Shown here: positions 6,392 to 44,449 of the stretch, piece after piece | Layout: the number at the start of each line of letters is the position of its first letter | How positions within the stretch are numbered: the stretch's first letter is position 1 | Origin: an uncultured Phycisphaeraceae bacterium | GTDB taxonomy: Bacteria; Planctomycetota; Phycisphaerae; Phycisphaerales; UBA1924 | Direction of reading: 5' to 3' | Assembly: GCA_964490785.1 (NCBI GenBank) | Contig: CAZBDZ010000009.1 | Coordinates: 2,812-66,811 of the forward strand | DNA: 64,000 nucleotides | Made by a program: the position numbers and the translations under genes | The notes under the pieces: model-generated | Database searches by the model: none | Told to the model about the DNA's origin: nothing | Seen by the model: only the letters and a program-made list of their open reading frames with translations

Positions 6392-6948
<557 letters not shown>

Positions 6949-7050: not shown

Positions 7051-8097
7051 ATGCCCGCCCCCGCGGAAGGCATCCCGGCCATCGCATGGCTTCATCCCGA
7101 GCAGGCCGGCCTCGTCCGCGCCTTGGCCTCGCACGCCAAACTCAGCCTCCTCGGCGTCGGAATCACGGCCGACGCCCGCCGGCGCGCCGAACCATCTCCG
7201 TTCGGCGACTCGGCGGCGTTCACCGACCTGCGCCAGGCACTCGCCACGATGCCCATCCGAGTCGCCCTTCTCGCCGCGCCGCCGGAGGGCGCGGAGACCG
7301 ATGAGAGCGAGCACGACCTGCTCCGTCTGGCGCGGTCAAGGGAACTGACGATCCTCACCCTCGAACCGATCCCCGGCTCGGTCGGGGCGGCCCGGCTTGC
7401 TGATCCCGCGCAATGGGTCCACTCCTTCCGATACCTCGGGCTGTTCCGCGCCGCCCCGGCGCTGGCGACGGCGAATGAACTGCTTCAGTCCTTCGGCACG
7501 CCGCGCACGCTGACCGTGTCGTTCCGCAGCGGGCGCGGACAGGGCTCGCTCGGCTCGCGGCTGTTCGACGCGATGCACACGGTGCATTCGATCCTCGGCG
7601 TGCCGGAGACGATCGACGCTTCGATCATCACTGCGGTGGCGGCGTCGGGGCTTCGGCTGGAGCCCGCGGTGTCGCTCCGGGCGCTGCACGGCGATCTCAC
7701 GGCGAATCTGCGTTACGCCGGGGCGAAGTCCGCGGCGATCAGCCTGAGCGACCGTGCGGGGCGCTGGTTCCGCGGAGTGGCGGTGGTGGGCGAATCCGGG
7801 TGCATCCGCATGGACGAGAGCGGCGTGGAGCGCATCGACGCCGATGGACAGGTCGTCGAAAAGGCCGCGGGCACGCGTCGGCGCTCCCCGGCGAAGGGGA
7901 CGGCGCTATTCGATGAGATCATCGACACGCCCGCGTTCGACGCGCTCGCCGACGCCGCGCGCCGGGCGTTGGACCCGCGCGCCCCGAAGCCGGAGCCTTT
8001 CGACCTCGAGGCCGTGCTCTCGATGTGCGAGGCCGCCATGCTCAGCGCCCGAACCTGCCAGGCGGAAAGCCCGGCAACGGTCGTACGGATGGCCTGA
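7051..8097 (+). CDS. Hypothetical protein, Gfo/Idh/MocA-like C-terminal fold with no recognisable NAD motif
   Basis: LFDAMHTVHSILGVPETIDA resembles the GFO_IDH_MocA C-domain motif. There is no GxGxxG. Start could be GTG 7009 or ATG 7051. Confidence 0.45.
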   Translation: MPAPAEGIPAIAWLHPEQAGLVRALASHAKLSLLGVGITADARRRAEPSPFGDSAAFTDLRQALATMPIRVALLAAPPEGAETDESEHDLLRLARSRELTILTLEPIPGSVGAARLADPAQWVHSFRYLGLFRAAPALATANELLQSFGTPRTLTVSFRSGRGQGSLGSRLFDAMHTVHSILGVPETIDASIITAVAASGLRLEPAVSLRALHGDLTANLRYAGAKSAAISLSDRAGRWFRGVAVVGESGCIRMDESGVERIDADGQVVEKAAGTRRRSPAKGTALFDEIIDTPAFDALADAARRALDPRAPKPEPFDLEAVLSMCEAAMLSARTCQAESPATVVRMA

Positions 8098-8322: not shown

Positions 8323-9669
8323 TCACCCCACCCATCGCGTTACATGCCACGCCTTTTTGCCCCGGCGAATGGCGGCGATCGTGCCGTGGAGAAGCATGCT
8401 CTCGTTCAGCCGATCGTCGATGCCGACGACCCGGCCGTTGACGGACACCGCGCCCGCCTGAAGGTGCTCGCGGGCCTCGCGTTTGCTCTTGCAGAGGGTG
8501 GTCGATGGCAGCAGGTCCACCAGCGCCAGTCCGCCGCCCGTCAACTCGGCGCGCCGGTGCTCGCTCGACGGCACGCTCGCGAAGACCTCGGTCAGCGTCG
8601 CCAGGGGCAACCCGGCGACGTCGCCGCTGAAGAGCGCCTGTGCCGCGGCCTCGGCGTCGCGCATGGCGCTTTCGCCGTGGAGCATCGCGGTCATGTGCCG
8701 GGCGAGGGCGCGATGGGCTTCGCGCTTGCCGGGGTCGGCGGCGTGGGAACGCTCCAACGCCTCGACCTCCTCGTGCGGCAGGATCGTGAAGAACCGGATC
8801 CACCGGCCCGCGTCCGCGTCCGAAGCATTCAGCCAGAACTGGTGGAAGGCGTAGGGGCTGGTGCGGTCGGGAGAAAGCCAGATCGCGCCGGACTCGGTTT
8901 TGCCGAACTTTCCGCCGTCGGATTTGGTGACAAGGGGGGCGGTGAGACCGAAGGATGCAGCCTCCCCTTGCTGGCGCGCGGGGTTCGTCGTTGAGGAGGA
9001 CCCTCCCTCACGGTCGGGGTTCGTGGATTTTCGGATCAGGTCGATTCCCGCGACGATGTTGCCCCACTGGTCGCTGCCCGCGATCTGGGCCGTCACGCCC
9101 ATCGTGCGGTAGAGGTGGAGGAAGTCGTAGGCCTGCAGGAGCATGTACGAGAATTCGGTGTAGGAGATGCCCTGTTCGCGGTTCTCAAGGCGCTCGCGGA
9201 CGGAGTCGCGCTTGATCATCTCGTTGACGGAGAAGTGCTTCCCGATGTCGCGCAGGGCCTCGATGAATCCGAGATTTCCGAGCCAGTCGAGGTTGTTGGT
9301 GATCTTGGCGGCGTAGGGGCCGGTGAAGTCCAGCACGCGCGTGAAGATCTTCGTCTGGGCCTCGACGTTCGCGCGGACGCGCTCCTCCGTCATCAACTGG
9401 CGTTCGGCCGATTTGCCTGAGGGGTCGCCGATCAGCCCCGTTCCGCCGCCGACGACGACGACCGGCGCATGCCCCGCCCGCTGCCAATGACGGAGCATCA
9501 ACATCGGGACGAGGTTCCCGATGGTGAGCGAATCGGAGGTCGGGTCAAAGCCGCAGTACGCTGACCGACGGCCCGACGCGAGGTGGGCGCGCAGCCCCGA
9601 CTCATCCGTGCATTGGTGGTAGAGGCCGCGCCATTTGAGTTCGTCGATGAAATCCGGGGAGCCAGTCAT
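8323..9669 (-). CDS. tyrS: Tyrosine--tRNA ligase
   Basis: YCGFDPTSDSL, GGGTGLIGDPSGKSAER, KFGKTESG (KMSKS-type) and a C-terminal S4-like domain. Internal ATG at 9669 (MTGSPDFIDELKWRGLY). Confidence 0.95.
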   Translation of the reverse strand: MTGSPDFIDELKWRGLYHQCTDESGLRAHLASGRRSAYCGFDPTSDSLTIGNLVPMLMLRHWQRAGHAPVVVVGGGTGLIGDPSGKSAERQLMTEERVRANVEAQTKIFTRVLDFTGPYAAKITNNLDWLGNLGFIEALRDIGKHFSVNEMIKRDSVRERLENREQGISYTEFSYMLLQAYDFLHLYRTMGVTAQIAGSDQWGNIVAGIDLIRKSTNPDREGGSSSTTNPARQQGEAASFGLTAPLVTKSDGGKFGKTESGAIWLSPDRTSPYAFHQFWLNASDADAGRWIRFFTILPHEEVEALERSHAADPGKREAHRALARHMTAMLHGESAMRDAEAAAQALFSGDVAGLPLATLTEVFASVPSSEHRRAELTGGGLALVDLLPSTTLCKSKREAREHLQAGAVSVNGRVVGIDDRLNESMLLHGTIAAIRRGKKAWHVTRWVG

Positions 9670-9750
9670 TGAGGCGATCCTACCCTCCGCGTGGCACGGG
9701 CTTTCCAGCCCGCGGCTTCGCGCACGCATTGGAAAGGGCGCGGCACGGGC

Positions 9751-9793
9751 GCAAAGGAACACCCCGGCAGGGCTGTGCGACCATGCCGGGGTG
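9751..9793 (-). terminator. Probable terminator after the PEP-CTERM protein gene
   Basis: 10-bp stem caccccggca / tgccggggtg, followed on the minus strand by ttcctttg. Confidence 0.5.
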
Positions 9794-9825
9794 CTCCAAA
9801 AGGGGGGCTTGTTGGGGATCGCGGA

Positions 9826-10587
9826 TCAGGCGCGCCGGCGGAGGAAGCCGACCAGGCCCAGGACGCCCAGGGCGATCGTGCCCGGGGCCGGGGTTTCGCC
9901 ATTGGCGATCATCTCGCCCGGATCGAAGTTGAAAGTCTCCGACGGGCGGCGGCCCGAGGCGACGCCGTCGTTGCCTTGGAACGGCGCGGGATTCGACGCG
10001 ATGCGCTGCACGAGCGGGGCCTGCTCGCCCTGCTGAACGCCCTGCCCGGTCATCTCGCGCACGGCGGCGGAGGGGAACAGGGCCCCGGCGAGGGCCGGGT
10101 TGCTGGAGAAGGCGCCCGCCAGCGGCTGCGAATCCGTGATCATCATGCTGTCGTTCGATGCCTCGGCCTCAGGCTCCGCGGCCGCGGCGTCGTCGCTCAG
10201 CCGACTCAGCGTGCTCTCCTCGCGGAGCACCAAGCCGAGAGACTCGCGCATGTGGTCGATCGACTGAACCTCCGGCTCGTCGGTAAACGCGAGCAGGGGG
10301 GTCGCCGACTGCACGGTTTCGTTCTTTGTGCCCTCGAGGATTTTCGAGAGCGCGTCGCGCATCCGGACATCCGCCACGATGTCCCGCGATTCGCTCTCGC
10401 CGGCGGGGCGGGCGACCCTGGCCGCGAACTGCGGCCCGACGGGCGGGGTGATCGGGACCTCGGCGGTGCGGATCGCGTCCCGCGAGAACATCTTGGGAAG
10501 CGTGATCCCGAACCTCGAGAGTCCGGCAACCGCGAGCGCAGGAACAACCACGATACCAGCGATAACAACGGCACGGGCCTTGAACAT
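9826..10587 (-). CDS. Hypothetical secreted protein with a PEP-CTERM-type C-terminal anchor
   Basis: N-terminal TM/signal segment. C-terminus TPAPGTIALGVLGLVGFLRRRA is a Pro motif, a hydrophobic helix and an Arg cluster. Confidence 0.6.
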   Translation of the reverse strand: MFKARAVVIAGIVVVPALAVAGLSRFGITLPKMFSRDAIRTAEVPITPPVGPQFAARVARPAGESESRDIVADVRMRDALSKILEGTKNETVQSATPLLAFTDEPEVQSIDHMRESLGLVLREESTLSRLSDDAAAAEPEAEASNDSMMITDSQPLAGAFSSNPALAGALFPSAAVREMTGQGVQQGEQAPLVQRIASNPAPFQGNDGVASGRRPSETFNFDPGEMIANGETPAPGTIALGVLGLVGFLRRRA

Positions 10588-10753
10588 AATGCTGACTCCT
10601 CCTCCTGCGGCCCGGTTGTGCTACCGGGTCGAGGCATGGATGAGAATACCACGATTTCGAGCCGATGCAAACGATTTTTTCCGGTACACGCAGGAATCGG
10701 GCAAATTCTGCCCCGGATTGCGCCCCGATGCCCGGCCCAATCCGCACCAAACC

Positions 10754-14472: not shown

Positions 14473-17178
14473 TCACGAGCCGGCATCCTCCGGCGGGGGC
14501 GCGGCCTCGTCCGTACTCTCGCCGGGCGGGACCACCGCCGCGGCCACGAGGCGGTCGCCCTCCTTGAGGTTGGCCAGACGCACACCCTGGGTATTCCGCC
14601 CGATGCGGGATATCTGGGCGACGGGGATGCGGACGAGCAGGCCGCCTTCGGACACGAGGACGACGCCCTCGCCCTCCTTGACCGCCTTCATGGCGACGAC
14701 CTTGCCGTTGCGGCCCTCGGTGCGGATGTCGATTCGGCCCTTCCCGCCGCGGGACTGGGCGCGGTACTCCGTTTTGCCGCCCTCGCCCTCACCCGCGACG
14801 AGGTACTCGATCATGGCGGTGCGCTTGCCGTAGCCGTTCTCCGTCACGGTGAGGAGGTCCACCTCGGGATGGACGGACGAGAGCGGATCGTTCTCATCGC
14901 GCATCTCGACGCGGACGAGGTCGACGACCTCATCTCCCTCGACGAGTTCGATGCCCTTGACGCCCGCGGCCCCGCGGCCCATGGGGCGCGCGTCGCTCTC
15001 CATGAAGCGGATGGACATGCCCTGGGCCGTGCCGAGGAGGAGGTGGTCCGTGCCGCTGGTGTTCGTGACGCCGATGAGGCGGTCGCCCTCGTTCAGATCG
15101 ACGGCGATGATGCCCGCCCGGCTGACGTTCTGATAGAGGCGGAGGCTGGTGCGCTTCACCTTGCCCTGTGCGGTCGCGAAGACGAGGTAGTCCTCGCTCT
15201 TCTCGAAATCCTTGATGGGCATGAACGCCACGGCCTTTTCGCCCATCGCGCCCTCGCTGCCGGGGCGGAGTTCGATCAGGTTCATGATGGATCGGCCGCG
15301 GGTGGTCCGCGCCATCTCGGGGATCTCGTAGACCTTGACCTTGAAGACGCGCCCGGTGTTCGTGAAGCACAGGAGGTCGTCGTGCGTGGAGGCGACGAAG
15401 ACGTGCTCGATGAAGTCCTCTTCCTTGGCGTCCGAGGCCTTGATGCCGCGCCCGCCGCGGTTCTGCTCGCGGTAGGTGGTCATCGGCACGCGTTTGAGCC
15501 AGCCCTCGTGGCTGATGGTGACGGCGACGTCCTCCTGGCGGATGAGGGCCTCGATGTTGATGTCGGCGTCGGACTCCTCGATCCGGGTGAGGCGAGGCGT
15601 GGCGTAGCGGGTCTTCATCTCCACGCAGTCGGCGCGGATGATCGCCAGGACCTTCTTCCGGTCGGCGAGGATCGCTTCGAGGCCGGTGATCTCCTCGACA
15701 AGTTTCGCGTAGTCGGCGACGAGTTTCTCGATCTCGAGGCCGACCAACTGGATGAGGCGCATGGCGCCGATGGCCTCGGCCTGCACGCGGGTGAGGCGCA
15801 TGCCGCCTGTCGCATCCGCGGCGCGGACCGCGTCCATGAGGCGTGCGGGAATCTTCGAGGCGTGCTTGTGGTCCGCGGCGATGCGGAGGGCCCGGGCCGC
15901 CAGTTTCTCGATCGCCTCTTCGCGCGTGCGCGACGAGCGAATCAGTTTGATCACCTCGTCGATGTCGCAGACGGCGTAGATCATGCCCTCCAGGACGTGG
16001 GCCTTCTTCTTGGCTTCCTGCAGGAGGTGCCGCGTGCGGCGCTCGATCACGTCCACCCGGTGATCGACGTAGCAGTCCAGCATCTCGCGCAGACTCAGCG
16101 TGCGCGGCTGGCGGTTCACCAGCGCGATGTTCATGATGCTGAGCGTGTCCTGCAGCGGCGTGAACTCGTACAACTGGTTCTCGATGACCGCCGGGTCGGC
16201 CCCGCGCCGCAGTTCGCAGACGACGCGGACCGGCGCCTCGCGCCCCGATTCGTTCCGCACGTCGGTGATGTCCTTGATCTTCTCCTCGTTCACCGCCTCG
16301 CCGATGGCGTTGACGACGGTGAGCAGGCCGAGTTGATAGGGGATGGTGTCGATGACGATCTGCTGGCGGTCGCGCGAGCCGGGGATTTCCTCGACGTGGA
16401 CGGTGCCGCGGACGGTGAGGCGGCCGCGCCCGGTGGCGTAGCCCTCGACCACGCCGCGCTTGCCGCAGATGACGCCGCCGGTCGGGAAATCCGGGCCGGG
16501 GACGATGCCGATCAACTCATTCAGGGTGATTTCGGGGCGGTCGATGACGGCGACGATCGCGTCGAGGATCTCGCCCGGGTTGTGCGGGAGGAGGCTCGTC
16601 GCCATGCCGACGGCGATGCCGACGCCGCCGTTGACGAGCAGGTAGGGGAACTTGCCGGGCAGGACGGTCGGCTCCTGCAGGCGGTCGTCGTAGTTGGGCT
16701 GGAAATCGACCGTGTCGAGTTTGAGATCCTCGAGCATGTCGCTCGCGGCGTGGTGGAGCCTTGCCTCGGTGTACCGCATCGCGGCCGGAGGGTCGGGGTT
16801 GATCGAGCCGAAGTTCCCCTGCGGGTCCACGACGGGGACGCGCATCTTCCAATCCTGCGCCATTCCGGCGAGCGTGGGGTAGACGACCGATTCGCCGTGC
16901 GGGTGGTAGTTGCCCGAGGTGTCGCCGCAGATCTTCGCGCACTTGATGTGCTTCTTGCCGGGGCGGAGGTTGAGGTCGTTCATCGCGACGAGGATGCGGC
17001 GTTGCGAGGGCTTCAGGCCGTCGCGCACATCGGGCAGGGCACGATCCATGATCGTGCTCATCGCGTAGGTGAGGTAGGAATCCTTCAGTTCGTCCTCGAT
17101 CTGGAGATCGACGACGTGGCCGATGTTCAGCGGCGCTTCGGGATTCTGCGGCGTGGTTGGAGGGGTTTCGTCGGGCAT
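14473..17178 (-). CDS. gyrA: DNA gyrase subunit A
   Basis: 901 aa. [27 protein letters not shown] (catalytic Tyr) and C-terminal beta-pinwheel repeats. Confidence 0.97.
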
Positions 17179-28414: not shown

Positions 28415-28525
28415 GTGTCGCAGTTTGAATGTGGCACGCCCTTTCCAGGGCGTGGCGCGGGGGACATGGGCTGGGTCGCCTCGGCGACTCTCCGAAAAGC
28501 CCATGCCACATTCAAACTGCGACAC
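28415..28525. mobile_element. MITE-like palindromic element of 111 bp (GTGGCAYG family, full-length copy)
   Basis: 22-nt terminal inverted repeats gtgtcgcagtttgaatgtggca / tgccacattcaaactgcgacac. Two internal hairpins. An 11-nt direct repeat gaagccggggt lies 1 nt and 4 nt outside the two ends. Confidence 0.75.
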
Positions 28526-28722
28526 TACCGAAGCCGGGGTGGTCTCAAGGGGCGGCGTTCTCGGCCCGATTCTTGCTGGGTAGGGGTGTTTCACCAAGAT
28601 TCGGTCAAAGCGTTGCAGTCTTCCGAGCCGTTGAATACCATCTCTGGTCCCGTTCGGTTGGAGGCTGGCGGGGCGGAGAGAGACCCCGCGATCAGGCCGA
28701 GCAGGCCCAGGATGTGCGCCGC

Positions 28723-29709: not shown

Positions 29710-29925
29710 TCCGCTGGCAAGCCGAAGCGGTGGGCCTCTCACGACGCTCGGCGGAGGCATGATCTCGCGCCCAATGCGCCCCGGACCGCGTCCGCTGTCG
29801 GCTCTCAGCGCGGGCGGCGCTTGGTGCTCTTCTTCTTGCCCCTTCCCACTTGCGCTGCGGCCCGAGCCGCCGCGGCAGTCGCACGCCGAACCGCGCGGGT
29901 GATGCGGACGTGATCGCGGCCGAGG

Positions 29926-30540
29926 TCAATCGAGGGTGTCGTCTTCGGATTCGTCGGCATGTGCGTCTCGAAGGATGCGAGCCCAAGCGCTCTGAACGAG
30001 GATCATCTTAGGCGCAGCCTCCGCACGGTGTGCGATCAGGCGCGCAGGCCCGTGATCGGAGTTGTCATAGATCGCCCACGAATGGGCGAGAGGCAGATAA
30101 AGTCGGATCAGGTTCACCAGGCTTCGCGAGTATCGGCGGAGTACGACATCCTTCGGGACGTCGTGGCCTCCTGCTTGCACTCGGTTCCGAACGCGTCGAA
30201 GGGCGAGCGAAGCCGATCGCACCCAGACATACGCCACATGGAATCGGTAGCCGCGCGCTGTCAATCCGCGGATCCAGGGCGCGAACGACCGGCTGGCGAG
30301 CGTGGACTCGAACGAGAAAGACACCCCATCGTCCGCGAGGTCATGCAAGCGTTGCAGCATCAGTCGTCCAGCGGCGAACGAGGCGCGCTCCGGCGCGAAC
30401 CCGGACAAGCCTTGTGCGATGATGTCCGCGTTGACGAAGTGCTCAATGCCGAGCGTGTCGGCGAGGACCGCGCGGGAAATGGTCGTCTTGCCCGCTCCGT
30501 TCGGGCCGCCGATGACGACGATGGAGGGGCGGTCAGGCAT
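29926..30540 (-). CDS. Zeta-toxin-type P-loop kinase/ATPase (COG4185-like)
   Basis: Walker A GGPNGAGKTT. 204 aa with overall zeta/AAA_33-like organisation. The start overlaps the upstream ORF by 8 nt. Confidence 0.8.
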   Translation of the reverse strand: MPDRPSIVVIGGPNGAGKTTISRAVLADTLGIEHFVNADIIAQGLSGFAPERASFAAGRLMLQRLHDLADDGVSFSFESTLASRSFAPWIRGLTARGYRFHVAYVWVRSASLALRRVRNRVQAGGHDVPKDVVLRRYSRSLVNLIRLYLPLAHSWAIYDNSDHGPARLIAHRAEAAPKMILVQSAWARILRDAHADESEDDTLD

Positions 30541-30982
30541 ATCCGTTCACGACTCTGACGAGCCTCCGGTAGTTGAACATGCGTGATAGTCCATCCGGAG
30601 TGAAGTTTTTGCCGGACTTGTTGGCCTTCGGAACGGCTCCGAACTCGAGTTTGAACGCAATGAGCAAGTCTCGTTCAAGGCGCGGCCATGACTTGGTGCC
30701 GGGCTTGAGCGGGCATGTGACAAGACACACTTGAAGGCTCCGAACGCCCCACTCACCGAGAAAATCGATGGCTTTGTGCGCTATGCTCGACGCAACCCGG
30801 CGAACGCCCCGCTCGGTCGTTCCGATGTAGAGAATCCGCGACCGCTTGCGGCCGTACTTGAGCGCTCGCGGAGCGCAAATGAGGTAGACGAGCTTCTCGT
30901 GCTTGATCGCCCGGCGATCAATCGTCATGGCCGGCACTGACGAGGCGTTAATTGTGAGACGCTTGATGTGCTTCGTCGCCAT
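30533..30982 (-). CDS. GIY-YIG-like 150-aa protein (non-canonical spacing)
   Basis: LVYLI...ILYIGTTERGVRRV...LERDLLIAFKLEFGAVPKAN gives GIY / YIG / Arg / Glu-x-Asn in the expected order. About 52% GC in a hand count. ATG 30982 is 4 nt after the top6A stop. Confidence 0.55.
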   Translation of the reverse strand: MATKHIKRLTINASSVPAMTIDRRAIKHEKLVYLICAPRALKYGRKRSRILYIGTTERGVRRVASSIAHKAIDFLGEWGVRSLQVCLVTCPLKPGTKSWPRLERDLLIAFKLEFGAVPKANKSGKNFTPDGLSRMFNYRRLVRVVNGYA

Positions 30983-30986
30983 CAAC

Positions 30987-32123
30987 TCAGTCTAACCAGT
31001 CCTTCACCTTCAACCGCTCCGGCACGTACACCTCCGTCACATACGAGATGTCCTTGGTGATCAGCGACTCGACCTCCATCTTGAAGCCGTTCTTCAGCAT
31101 CGCATCGATCTCGCGCTGCCACTCTTTCTTGTCCGTGAACCACGGGTACGCGGCGATTTGCTTGGCGCGGTTGATGTCGGTGTCGGTGAGGGCGATCTGG
31201 ACGTCGTCGCTCAGGCCGCAGCGGTCGTAGTCGATCGCGCGGATGCCGAGGAACTTCGCGTCGGGGATGGCGAGGCGCTCGGACTCGAAGGCGAGGTTGA
31301 TTGACCCCTGCTTCATCACGCTGTAGATGTAATGTCCCCACGGGTCGCAGTCGAGGAGGCAGTAGACGGGCAGTCTCAGTTCTTCGTGCAGTCGGCGGAG
31401 GAGGCGGCGCACGCCGCGGGGGGGCTGCCCGCCGCCTTCGGTCAGGATGCAGTTGTGCTTCTGCCAGAACTTGTCCTCGTTGAAGCGGGACCAGACGGTG
31501 TTCTTCTCGACGTGGAGGATGAACTTCGCGTCGCACTTCTTGAACTGGATGACGTCCGGCTCGCAGATGCTCGGAATGGCGTACCCGCCGGAGCCCATGC
31601 GTCGGCAGTCGATCTCGTCGCCGGAGTCCACGATGGTGATGTTGCCGACCATCGTTCCCGCTTTCTTGGCGAAGAGATGCAGTTCCTCGCGGAGCGAGCC
31701 GAGCGTTACTTCGAGGTCTTCGAGGATCGTGTCCGACTCGTCCTGGTCGGCGAAGGTTTTCTCTCTCGTGCCGGGGATGGTGTGGAGGGCCTTGTAGTAC
31801 ATGCCGCGGAGGCTGAGCGTCTTGCCGGCGTCGATGAGGGACTTGACGCCCGAGCCGAGGAGCATGGTCTGCATGAACTTCTTGGCCTGCCCGACGTTGA
31901 AGAGGTTGCGTTTCTGGGCGGCGTCGCCCATCTCGAGCGTGCGTCGCTTCTTGTTGAAGGTGGTGTTGGCGAGCGTGCGGGCGGGGACGTCCACCCACGG
32001 GTCGCGGTAGCCGAGCGACGACTTGGCGACGCCGTCCGCGAGCCCGACGAGGTGCTTCATCGTGCGCTCGTCGCGGGCTGCCACCGAGCGGGAGGTGCGG
32101 GAATCTGCGGTTCTCTTGGCCAT
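30987..32123 (-). CDS. top6A: DNA topoisomerase VI subunit A (Spo11 family)
   Basis: LRGMYY (catalytic Tyr region), Toprim FILHVEKNTVW, GGGQPPRGVRRLL, LLDCDPWGHYIYSV, KMEVESL. Confidence 0.9.
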   Translation of the reverse strand: MAKRTADSRTSRSVAARDERTMKHLVGLADGVAKSSLGYRDPWVDVPARTLANTTFNKKRRTLEMGDAAQKRNLFNVGQAKKFMQTMLLGSGVKSLIDAGKTLSLRGMYYKALHTIPGTREKTFADQDESDTILEDLEVTLGSLREELHLFAKKAGTMVGNITIVDSGDEIDCRRMGSGGYAIPSICEPDVIQFKKCDAKFILHVEKNTVWSRFNEDKFWQKHNCILTEGGGQPPRGVRRLLRRLHEELRLPVYCLLDCDPWGHYIYSVMKQGSINLAFESERLAIPDAKFLGIRAIDYDRCGLSDDVQIALTDTDINRAKQIAAYPWFTDKKEWQREIDAMLKNGFKMEVESLITKDISYVTEVYVPERLKVKDWLD

Positions 32124-32276
32124 TTCAGTTCACTCTGCGCTTGGAAAACCGGAACGGTACACACTCGGCCCATGCGACTGATGGACCGGCCCGGCTTGAT
32201 GATCGGCGGAAACGCACGCCGGAGATGCAAAACCGGGCGGCAACGCCTCGCGCCGCACCCGTTTCCGTGCATCGGG

Positions 32277-33620
32277 CTACCGCCCACCCGCGAGCATCTG
32301 CCGCGGCAGCCCGGCCGGGATTCGCGGGCAGGTCAGGACAGGGGCGTAGACAATCGCGTACATCGCAAACGCAGCCGACCACGCGACGCCCGCTGCGGTC
32401 ATGGCGGGCAGGTACACCGCCGGGATCAACGAGCCCGCGACGCGGATCACCGCCGCCGCAGCCACGAGGAGGTACATGACGACCTCGGCCCGGCCCGCCT
32501 GCACGGGTCGGCCTGAATGGCCCAACGCCGTGCGCGTGATCATCCCGATAATCAGCCCGCCCATCGAACCCACCGCCAGCGCATGGATGGCGGCGGACCG
32601 CGGCACCACGCCCATCGCGGCCAGACCCAGCAGCACGAGCCCGATCGGGATCCACGCATACGCCAGGTGCAACACCCAAAGCATCGGCCGCGACCGCGCC
32701 GCCAGCGGGTTCCACCCCAGAGCCTGCACGCCCACCACAAGGCCCGCCGCGATCGCCACCGCTCCGATCCACAGGCTCGGCAGCCTGAACACATCCGAAG
32801 CGAACGCCGCCGCCGCCAGCAGGAAGGCGCCGCGATGAAGCCACGCGGCCCGATACTGCCGCACGCCCGGGATGGCGTTGGCCGTGAATCCGGGCACGAC
32901 GCGCCCGCCGACGATCATCTCGATCAGCACCACGAGCATCAGCCCGGCTTCGACGGCGGCCGCCGGCGCAATCCCCGCCCATCCGAGCATCGAGGCGTGA
33001 AACACGACGTTGGACGCGCCGAGCGTGAGCAGAACCACGACCAGCGGCATGCTGCACAGGCTTCGCGCACGGATGAACTTGCGCGCCAGCACCCCGGCGA
33101 CCACCAGCAACAGCGCCGAGTCGATCACCGCCGCCACGGGGCCGTAGAAGAAGAACATCCCAACCCGCCCCGCGACCCACAGCGCAAACACGACCGCAAG
33201 CGACGCCCCCGCCGGGAGGGGCAGCCCCGTCCAGTTGCGTGCGGCGGTGAACAGGAACCCCACGATGATCGCCGCGGCGAAACCGAACACCATCTCGTGC
33301 ATGTGCCAGATCAACGGGGGCAGCGACGGCGTGAAATGCCCCTGCGTCCACGCGACAAGCCACACGGGCACCGCGAGGGCCGTGAACACCGCGCCGCCCA
33401 AATAGAACGGGCGGAACGAATCCCGAAGAAACACGCCCCCCCCGCCGGCGTTCCCTGCCGCCGAGGCGGAACAGGTCGGCGCGCCGACAAACACGCCGCC
33501 GACCGGCTTGGCCGCGTGCAGCCCGGCGGATTTCTCCGAGCAGCAAGAGGATGAATGAGGACTGCCTGAACACTGATGCATGGATGTGCCCTGTCCGCTC
33601 ACTTCACGATCCTTCGCCAA
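32277..33620 (-). CDS. nnrS: NnrS-family membrane protein
   Basis: FRPFYLGGAVF...WHMHEMVFGFAAAIIVGFLFTAARNW and about 12 TM segments. Start is TTG 33620 or ATG about 33581. Confidence 0.85.
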   Translation of the reverse strand: MAKDREVSGQGTSMHQCSGSPHSSSCCSEKSAGLHAAKPVGGVFVGAPTCSASAAGNAGGGGVFLRDSFRPFYLGGAVFTALAVPVWLVAWTQGHFTPSLPPLIWHMHEMVFGFAAAIIVGFLFTAARNWTGLPLPAGASLAVVFALWVAGRVGMFFFYGPVAAVIDSALLLVVAGVLARKFIRARSLCSMPLVVVLLTLGASNVVFHASMLGWAGIAPAAAVEAGLMLVVLIEMIVGGRVVPGFTANAIPGVRQYRAAWLHRGAFLLAAAAFASDVFRLPSLWIGAVAIAAGLVVGVQALGWNPLAARSRPMLWVLHLAYAWIPIGLVLLGLAAMGVVPRSAAIHALAVGSMGGLIIGMITRTALGHSGRPVQAGRAEVVMYLLVAAAAVIRVAGSLIPAVYLPAMTAAGVAWSAAFAMYAIVYAPVLTCPRIPAGLPRQMLAGGR

Positions 33621-40079: not shown

Positions 40080-40218
40080 GTGGCACGGGCTTTCCAGCCC
40101 GTGCTGCCCGCCGACACGCCCTGAAAAGGGCGTGCCACCATTCCGTGGCACGGGCTTTTCGAAGAGTCGCCGTGGCGATCCAGCCCGTGCCGACACGCCT
40201 TGGAAAAGGCGTGCCACC
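40080..40218. repeat. Cluster of four REP-like hairpins (GTGGCAYG family)
   Basis: gtggcacgggctttccagcccgtgc; gacacgccctgaaaagggcgtgcc; gtggcacgggcttttcgaagagtcgccgtggcgatccagcccgtgcc; gacacgccttggaaaaggcgtgcc. Confidence 0.8.
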
Positions 40219-44287: not shown

Positions 44288-44375
44288 GTCGCCGTTTGAA
44301 AGTGGCACGCCCTTTCCAGGGCGTGGCGCGGGGGACATGGGCTGGAAAGCCCATGCCACATTCAAACTGCGACAC
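44288..44375. mobile_element. Second copy (88 bp) of the MITE-like element at 28415-28525
   Basis: Arms gtcgccgtttgaaagtggca / tgccacattcaaactgcgac. The internal sequence is identical except that the 21-nt module gtcgcctcggcgactctccga is absent. Confidence 0.7.
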
Positions 44376-44449
44376 TCTCCGCCATGCGCGCCCCGCTTTC
44401 CGTCTGCCGCCCTTGCTATACTCGTTGCCCCGTCCCAAAGGACGGCCTA

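Follow-up and report, generated by a model that had tools for sequence, protein, structure and literature searches.

Relatives of the A subunit of topoisomerase VI (Topo VI) have been described as Mini-A, a separate, virus-associated clade of proteins of about 300 aa without the N-terminal 5Y-CAP part that contacts Top6B (PMC7671362), and the element e14 of Escherichia coli integrates in the 3′ end of a protein gene, icd, and supplies a surrogate end (PMC13626634). The locus described here lies in a 64-kb window from a Phycisphaerae (Planctomycetota) genome and resembles the Mini-A case in that a gene for an A-type subunit (top6A) stands without an adjacent gene for the B subunit (top6B). Directly behind top6A follow three further open reading frames (ORFs): ORF2, which is GIY-YIG-like, ORF3, a P-loop kinase of the zeta toxin family, and ORF4, a candidate small partner of the kinase. 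It is quite probable that this arrangement combines a housekeeping top6A with a separately acquired ORF2–ORF3–ORF4 cassette and does not form a three-gene DNA-cleavage system. The genes concerned are the following, and L-numbers below denote comparison loci fetched from relatives.

30987–32123, minus strand: top6A (ORF1), 378 aa, with 5Y-CAP, all-beta and Toprim domains
30533–30982, minus strand: ORF2, 149 aa from the ATG at 30982, or 150 aa (30533–30985) from a TTG
29926–30540, minus strand: ORF3, 204 aa, Zeta_toxin/AAA_33 P-loop kinase family
29805–29960, minus strand: ORF4, candidate 51-aa basic protein, MPTNPKTTPSIDLGRDHVRITRAVRRATAAAARAAAQVGRGKKKSTKRRPR, the last cassette gene

An earlier sequence-only reading of this DNA had described three packed minus-strand ORFs, and their coordinates, junctions and 8-nt overlap stand, except that ORF2 reaches the 150 aa assigned to it only from the TTG; the 51-aa ORF4 at 29805–29960 (minus strand) had been missed. 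At the first junction the TGA stop of top6A is followed by GTTG and then by the ORF2 ATG, leaving a 4-nt gap, and at the second the ORF2 stop and the ORF3 start share 8 nt within ATGCCTGA. ORF4 overlaps the 3′ end of ORF3 by 35 nt in a different frame. The cassette is probably read through from top6A.

The Topo VI subunit A gene

ORF1 matches the Pfam families TP6A_N (PF04406, residues 81–150), Topo_VI_alpha (PF20768, residues 156–198) and TOP6A-Spo11_Toprim (PF21180, residues 201–371), all above their gathering scores. The NCBIfam equivalog NF003333 covers residues 14–378 with 528.9 bits against a cutoff of 465. The Top6A/Spo11 signature set that had been read from the sequence is present in full, namely LRGMYY (105), HVEKNT (204), GGGQPP (230) and LLDCDPWG (256), and the catalytic Tyr, the Toprim E and the DxD metal-binding motifs are all in place. 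Homologues run into the thousands, and the most similar among the named ones belong to metagenome-assembled genomes of Phycisphaerae or Planctomycetota at 73–93% identity. For the comparison loci, identity to ORF1 is 92% in L009, 90% in L008, 78% in L010 and L011, and 92.5% over the covered part in L013; moreover, Phycisphaerae orthologues at 90–93% identity adjoin top6B. The ratio of nonsynonymous to synonymous divergence (dN/dS) of top6A against its orthologues is 0.10–0.16. Taken together, the equivalog score above cutoff, the top6B-adjoining orthologues and the low dN/dS indicate that ORF1 is orthologous and constrained, and it is the ordinary housekeeping Top6A of the host under strong purifying selection. 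The window top6A itself is already known biology.

The surroundings of the gene are likewise chromosomal housekeeping genes (NnrS, PPDK, a sigma factor and gyrA). An assignment of ORF1 to Mini-A was considered and rejected on the length of 378 aa, the presence of TP6A_N, the orthology to chromosomal Topo VI subunit A and this housekeeping context.

The cassette behind top6A

ORF2, ORF3 and ORF4 together read as a separately acquired accessory cassette of about 1.2 kb placed directly behind top6A. In base composition, overall GC is 58.0% in ORF2, 63.1% in top6A and 63.6% in ORF3, against a window mean of 66.4%; the low GC content noted for ORF2 from the sequence thus persists relative to its neighbours, and the figure of about 52% given for it does not. 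GC content at third codon positions (GC3) separates the cassette genes from top6A more clearly than overall GC, ORF2 having a GC3 of 0.72 and ORF3 of 0.74, whereas top6A reaches 0.92 and most of the larger host genes fall within 0.82–0.93.

The distribution of the cassette points in the same direction as its composition. Among the matches listed in a genome scan, none of 80 related loci carries ORF2 or ORF3 behind top6A, and in L009, with a Top6A 92% identical to that of the window, neither gene follows top6A; in relatives, top6A mostly has top6B directly upstream. L008 carries the cassette behind top6A and, in addition, an intact top6B nearby. In L005, a homologue of ORF2 (62% identical) and a homologue of ORF3 (55%) lie directly after a gene of the Iso_dh family, with no top6A at the locus. 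The overlap between ORF2 and ORF3 measures 8 nt in the window and in L005 and 4–5 nt in L008. Between the window and L008, synonymous divergence (dS) is 1.12 for ORF3 and 0.48 for the adjoining top6A. The lower GC3, the absence in relatives, the recurrence behind Iso_dh and the difference in dS together mark the cassette as foreign and portable, and across these loci it behaves independently of top6A.

The L008 copy is damaged in two of its genes: ORF2 (9255–9704) is broken into two 59-aa pieces, and in ORF3 (9700–10314) the Walker A lysine is replaced by Q. This damage fits the decay of a toxic module, without proving it.

Separation of top6A from top6B

No Top6B was detected in the window, in agreement with the sequence-only reading: tblastn with three Phycisphaerae Top6B proteins reaches at best E 0.04 over 31 aa, in a search aimed at Top6B and not at every GHKL protein, and the ten largest ORFs of the window all belong to other families. 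In L009, L010, L011 and L013, top6B (634–705 aa, HATPase_c plus Topo-VIb_trans) lies directly upstream of top6A; in the window, this position is held by NnrS. Two further features of the window delimit the change.

32124–32276, no strand: intergenic breakpoint stretch, where homology to the top6B–top6A loci of relatives ends
32277–33620, minus strand: NnrS, the upstream neighbour of top6A

Specifically, blastn homology to L012 begins at window position 32124 and homology to L008 and L009 at 32096, that is, at the start of top6A. Because homology ends at this point and NnrS lies upstream, a rearrangement has separated the A gene from the B gene in the window.

Linkage of the two genes was profiled by a genome scan with the L009 Top6B, which gave 80 Phycisphaerae/Planctomycetota loci among the matches listed, 72 of them with at least 3.8 kb beyond top6B. 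Within these 72, top6A lies just downstream of top6B on the same strand in 65, and 7 have no top6A in the whole locus or within 10 kb. In the genome GCA_013112555.1, both genes sit on one contig (JABFGK010000001.1), top6A near 173 kb and top6B near 756 kb, about 580 kb apart. An unlinked top6A and top6B has precedent in this class, and the partner of the window Top6A is most likely a canonical Top6B whose gene lies in another part of the genome.

The top6B–top6A locus is repeatedly rearranged in this clade, as L008 and L012 illustrate. In L008, about 1.2 kb separates an intact upstream top6B from top6A and the cassette. The insert between its two genes (L008 6897–8118, about 1.2 kb) holds an ORF with a sub-threshold SIR2_2 match (E 0.0067). 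L012 (GCA_947085435.1, CAMTWL010000006.1, 10001–14834) comprises an intact top6B, a 481-aa family-less ORF and then residues 1–195 only of top6A, a fragment 88% identical to the window Top6A. With top6A cut to this fragment, either an intact top6A lies elsewhere in the L012 genome or Topo VI is missing there; L012 and the window may come from very closely related genomes.

The ORF3 kinase and its probable small downstream partner

ORF3 matches the Pfam families Zeta_toxin (PF06414, 48 bits, cutoff 22.3) and AAA_33 (33.5 bits, cutoff 27) and carries the Walker A motif GGPNGAGKTT, so that both the motif and the zeta-toxin type proposed from the sequence are borne out. On plasmids, ORF3 has relatives in 465 records, for most of which the annotation reads 'zeta toxin family protein'. 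The reading frame of ORF4 is preserved in L008 and L005, where a RAV(R/Q)RA motif and a basic tail recur, and between window and L008 the first, second and third codon positions of ORF4 carry 5, 6 and 13 substitutions.

The five closest annotated relatives of ORF3 reside on plasmids of Legionella, Crocosphaera, Nostoc, Synechocystis (pSYSG) and Parabacteroides. All five have an ORF of 55–66 aa overlapping the 3′ end of the kinase gene and no ORF2-like gene upstream, and an N-terminal pattern common to ORF4 and these plasmid ORFs is visible, below statistical significance. More distant relatives differ in layout, one on an E. coli plasmid having a small ORF directly upstream of the zeta gene. 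On the strength of the conservation of ORF4 in three lineages and of the layout in five of five plasmids, ORF3 and ORF4 are read as a toxin-antitoxin-like pair, most likely of a 'kinase first, small partner downstream' subtype common on plasmids, in which the kinase would be the toxic component and ORF4 probably its antitoxin-like partner. The first option of the sequence-only reading, a housekeeping top6A with an inserted zeta-type module behind it, survives in this form, with two changes: the 150-aa ORF2 gives way to ORF4 as the likelier partner of the kinase, and ORF2 becomes a portable gene in its own right.

The Synechocystis plasmid shows a setting of its own (L108, pSYSG, NC_005231.1, 2366–5854). 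There, the kinase gene and its small downstream ORF have a nucleotidyltransferase family gene on one side and a DUF4433 plus macro-domain pair on the other, and the region adjoins a restriction S subunit within a dense toxin-antitoxin and defence island. A literature search returned nothing on a zeta toxin with a GIY-YIG protein, nor on the pSYSG pair.

ORF2 and its family

ORF2 has no family match in Pfam, NCBIfam, PADLOC or PHROGs. An exhaustive profile search recovers a family of 390 cluster representatives at E ≤ 1e-3, the clusters being formed at 50% identity. Across 97 diverse members, Y33, Y52, G54, E103, F110, P118 and N121 are invariant, and R62 is conserved in at least 90%. The order of these residues corresponds to Y6/Y17/R27/E75/N90 of I-TevI, whose sequence and R27/E75 positions were checked against 1LN0 and 1MK0, with spacings of 19/10/41/18 in ORF2 and 11/10/48/15 in I-TevI; the GIY-YIG-like order and the longer first spacer noted from the sequence are thus both confirmed. 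Additionally, an LE..L......P..N stretch resembles UvrC.

An AlphaFold2 model from a deep alignment reaches a predicted local distance difference test (pLDDT) score of 94.8 and shows a β-β-α-β-α-α order; a model from 17 close sequences, with a pLDDT of 44.7, is unusable. Foldseek against the viral library BFVD gives no match at or below 1e-3, and at least 11 of its weak top 50 are GIY-YIG, T5orf172 or homing endonucleases (best probability 0.93, TMq 0.48). Among the 97 members, weak Pfam matches to GIY-YIG occur in 6 (best E 0.0054) and to T5orf172 in 5, and hhalign against a 3-sequence UvrC/I-TevI profile gives E 0.14, its only aligned segment placing E103 on the catalytic Glu. Sequence profile searches of the PDB return nothing, and NCBIfam run on each member returns noise only. 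The balance of these results leans toward membership of the GIY-YIG superfamily, a label that is plausible and unproven, and from the GIY-YIG-like catalytic pattern ORF2 is a probable nuclease.

ORF2 is under purifying selection (dN/dS 0.13–0.19), and no fused domains occur in longer members of the family. Homologues of similar identity stand alone (L004) or near NOV_C, pYEATS, HigB, SIR2_2 or a group II intron reverse transcriptase. With homologues in such varied settings, ORF2 is no obligate companion of the kinase; it is a portable add-on, separate from the kinase pair. A metagenome scan with the 17-sequence alignment yields seven short loci only, and viral contigs yield no relative. The only relative found on a plasmid lies on pCME4A9II of Croceicoccus marinus (L107, NZ_CP019604.1, 89145–89599), where it is divided between two short genes, each annotated 'hypothetical protein', and flanked by an N-6 DNA methylase and by a large ATP-binding protein followed by an HNH endonuclease.

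A different division of roles would make ORF2 the antitoxin of ORF3, in an epsilon/zeta-like pair with the antitoxin upstream and unusually large and nuclease-like, and would leave ORF4 spurious. The close overlap of ORF2 and ORF3 (8 nt in the window and L005, 4–5 nt in L008), the joint damage to both genes in L008 and the upstream small ORF of the distant E. coli plasmid relative agree with such a pair. This assignment is nevertheless unlikely: equally similar ORF2 homologues occur alone or beside NOV_C, pYEATS and HigB, the five closest annotated ORF3 relatives lack an ORF2-like gene and always have the small overlapping ORF downstream, and invariant catalytic-type residues in 97 diverse members are unexpected for a simple binding antitoxin.

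Insertion footprints

Direct repeats of the host gene's 3′ end flank the cassette in L008 and L005. In L008, positions 10452–10646 repeat the locus's own top6A segment 8960–9156 with 92% identity over 195 nt, and this second top6A copy runs from about codon 283 to the contig end. In L005, positions 9203–9280 repeat Iso_dh positions 7914–7991 with 91% identity over 78 nt, corresponding to the last 26 codons including the stop codon. The remnant begins no more than about 20 nt from the ORF4 stop in both. These flanking repeats are an insertion footprint, and the sequence between them in L005 and L008 encodes only ORF2, ORF3 and ORF4, with no recombinase or integrase domain. A third, independent insertion with this layout occurs in L018 (JAJDDE010000165.1, 13601–14237), where an insert of about 455 nt, bracketed by 77-nt direct copies of the top6A 3′ end that are nearly identical, carries an unrelated family-less ORF of about 125 aa and no ORF2. 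Because the repeats at top6A start at different codons, about 283 in L008 and about 353 in L018, insertion appears to be homology-driven at very conserved gene ends and not directed to a fixed attachment or cleavage site.

In the proposed mechanism, the cassette would enter by recombination anchored on the very conserved 3′ end of a host gene, through either a single-crossover (Campbell-type) event or one-ended repair. The product would be an intact gene followed by the cassette and then by a leftover copy of the gene's 3′ end, and this leftover would have been kept in L008 and L005 and lost in the window. The 3′ end of the window top6A shows a mosaic signal: of the 20 informative sites in its last 98 nt, 12 group the window with L008, compared with 32 of the 132 within the first 844 nt (Fisher p ~0.01); outgroups did not polarise this mosaic, which is therefore weak evidence.

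The same footprints suggest a wider, unlikely reading, in which the cassette would belong to a so far undescribed class of mini-elements that lack an integrase and pass from one species to another with the conserved 3′ ends of housekeeping genes (top6A, Iso_dh) as one-sided homology anchors, cutting of the target gene by ORF2 stimulating insertion and the kinase with its small partner acting as an addiction module against loss by recombination between the flanking repeats. The L018 case weakens this homing-like, addiction-stabilised reading.

A narrower version is quite unlikely as well. Here ORF2 would be a free-standing homing-type GIY-YIG endonuclease that cuts cassette-free 3′ regions of host genes and in this way promotes insertion of the cassette, with ORF3 and ORF4 as a stabilising addiction module. 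It draws on the match of the invariant residues and spacing to I-TevI apart from the longer first gap, on the endonucleases among the weak viral-library matches (at least 11 of the top 50), on the position of the cassette between host-gene 3′ repeats in two different target genes, on a cassette dS exceeding host-gene dS together with a young L008 repeat, which hint at independent insertions at top6A, and on the ORF2 pseudogene in L008, as seen in decaying homing endonuclease genes. It is opposed by the repeat-flanked layout of L018, which has unrelated cargo and no ORF2 at the same top6A 3′ end, by repeat starts near codons 283 and 353 that leave no single cleavage or attachment site, by the lack of a significant GIY-YIG profile or fold match for ORF2 and of relatives in viral contigs, and by the unpolarised 3′-end mosaic.

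That Top6A, ORF2 and ORF3 constitute one DNA-cleavage or defence module, with the P-loop kinase in place of Top6B, as the second option of the sequence-only reading proposed, is highly improbable: the three genes are indeed closely packed in one direction, with a 4-nt gap at one junction and an overlap at the other, the 64 kb contain no top6B, PADLOC reports a weak JetD match (25 bits) for the Toprim region and the trio recurs in L008 and in Logan contigs, but a replacement of Top6B is contradicted by L008, where an intact top6B lies about 1.2 kb upstream of the same trio, the Top6A is a full-length equivalog 90–93% identical to copies paired with top6B, the cassette occurs without top6A in L005 and in 0 of the 80 related top6A loci listed, top6A and the cassette differ in codon usage, ORF3, as a small P-loop protein of the nucleotide-kinase type, is neither a GHKL protein nor a dimerising ATPase, and ORF2 occurs alone or with other partners, PADLOC recognising no system.

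The preferred reading and its significance

The preferred reading therefore remains a housekeeping top6A followed by a separately acquired cassette, and several observations weigh against parts of it. The Top6B of the window genome was not found, the genome scan giving nothing, among the matches listed, between 100% (L009's own genome) and 71%. No remnant of the top6A 3′ end follows ORF4 in the window, so the insertion there is deduced from the relatives L008, L005 and L018. For the kinase, a search of the PDB (phmmer and a 4-sequence profile) gives only matches at the P-loop/adenylate-kinase level and no zeta or PezT protein; as ORF3 reaches no characterised zeta/PezT structure by sequence, its toxin activity is assumed from family membership. 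The coding signal of ORF4 is modest, and its homology to the plasmid small ORFs is not statistically significant. The GIY-YIG assignment of ORF2 lacks a significant profile or fold match, Foldseek of the model against the PDB giving a best E of 0.7, and, given its tight overlap with ORF3 in three lineages, ORF2 may have a functional link to the kinase.

Had this Top6A acted with a nuclease and a kinase in the absence of Top6B, the result would have been a new DNA-cleavage system; the evidence is against it, and a false lead is thereby removed. What the locus offers instead is a sizeable GIY-YIG-like family (about 390 clusters at 50% identity) without an entry in the four collections searched, a zeta-family subtype with the kinase first and a small overlapping partner downstream that is widespread on plasmids, and, in Phycisphaerae, small cargo placed repeatedly between direct repeats of very conserved gene 3′ ends without an integrase. 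If general, such repeat-bracketed inserts could provide a simple homology-driven route for the transfer of small genes.

Other features of the window

A full-length gyrA (DNA_topoisoIV plus GyraseA_C repeats) lies at 14473–17178 on the minus strand, 14 kb from top6A, and its presence together with top6A indicates that the organism has both gyrase and Topo VI. The window also contains at least four copies of an intergenic repeat resembling repetitive extragenic palindromic (REP) elements, with the palindromic core ATGGGCTGGGTCGCC...AAAGCCCAT (28440–28545, 6741–6784, 40145–40186 and 44311–44376); elsewhere it is found only in L012 (16978–17063), among about 100 other fetched loci totalling 1.6 Mb. 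A perfect 22-nt inverted repeat (28415–28436 and 28504–28525) in the divergent intergenic region upstream of the sigma-70 gene forms part of this REP-like element.

Comparison with known systems

Relative to bacterial Topo VI of Planctomycetota, ORF1 has the same domain set, length and catalytic motifs and an equivalog-level score, and the C-terminal box GFKMEVESLITKDISYVTE is common to ORF1 and to the relatives' Top6A encoded beside top6B. Unlike at usual Topo VI loci, the window top6A is not beside top6B, a condition found in about 10% of related genomes among the matches listed.

Two assignments to defence systems were rejected. A Wadjet/JetD-like system was set aside because only a 25-bit, Toprim-level PADLOC match was obtained, and OLD-, Gabija- and PARIS-like systems because the PADLOC matches were at Walker A level only.

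ORF2 matches the GIY-YIG nucleases (I-TevI, the UvrC N-terminal domain and T5orf172) in the order and spacing of the Y, Y-x-G, R, E and P-x-x-N positions, and its predicted β-β-α-β-α core may correspond to theirs. It differs from them in a first hairpin about 8 residues longer and in consisting of a single 149-aa domain with no DNA-binding extension.

With epsilon/zeta (PezAT) modules, ORF3 shares the Zeta_toxin-family P-loop kinase, the tightly overlapping small-gene operon and the frequent occurrence of relatives on plasmids. In contrast to these modules, no epsilon-like antitoxin precedes ORF3, the upstream gene being ORF2 of an unrelated family; the kinase gene comes first with the small overlapping ORF downstream, and the kinase has no match to solved zeta/PezT proteins.

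As for e14-like elements, L008, L005 and L018 have the same layout of intact gene, insert and C-terminal remnant in direct orientation. The inserts here are only 0.45–1.2 kb long and carry no integrase, and their repeats span from 77 to at least 195 nt, are imperfect (91–92%) or near-identical and begin at variable positions, the window copy having no remnant. The cassette is a variation on known kinds, a zeta-family module joined to an unclassified GIY-YIG-like protein and inserted without an integrase.

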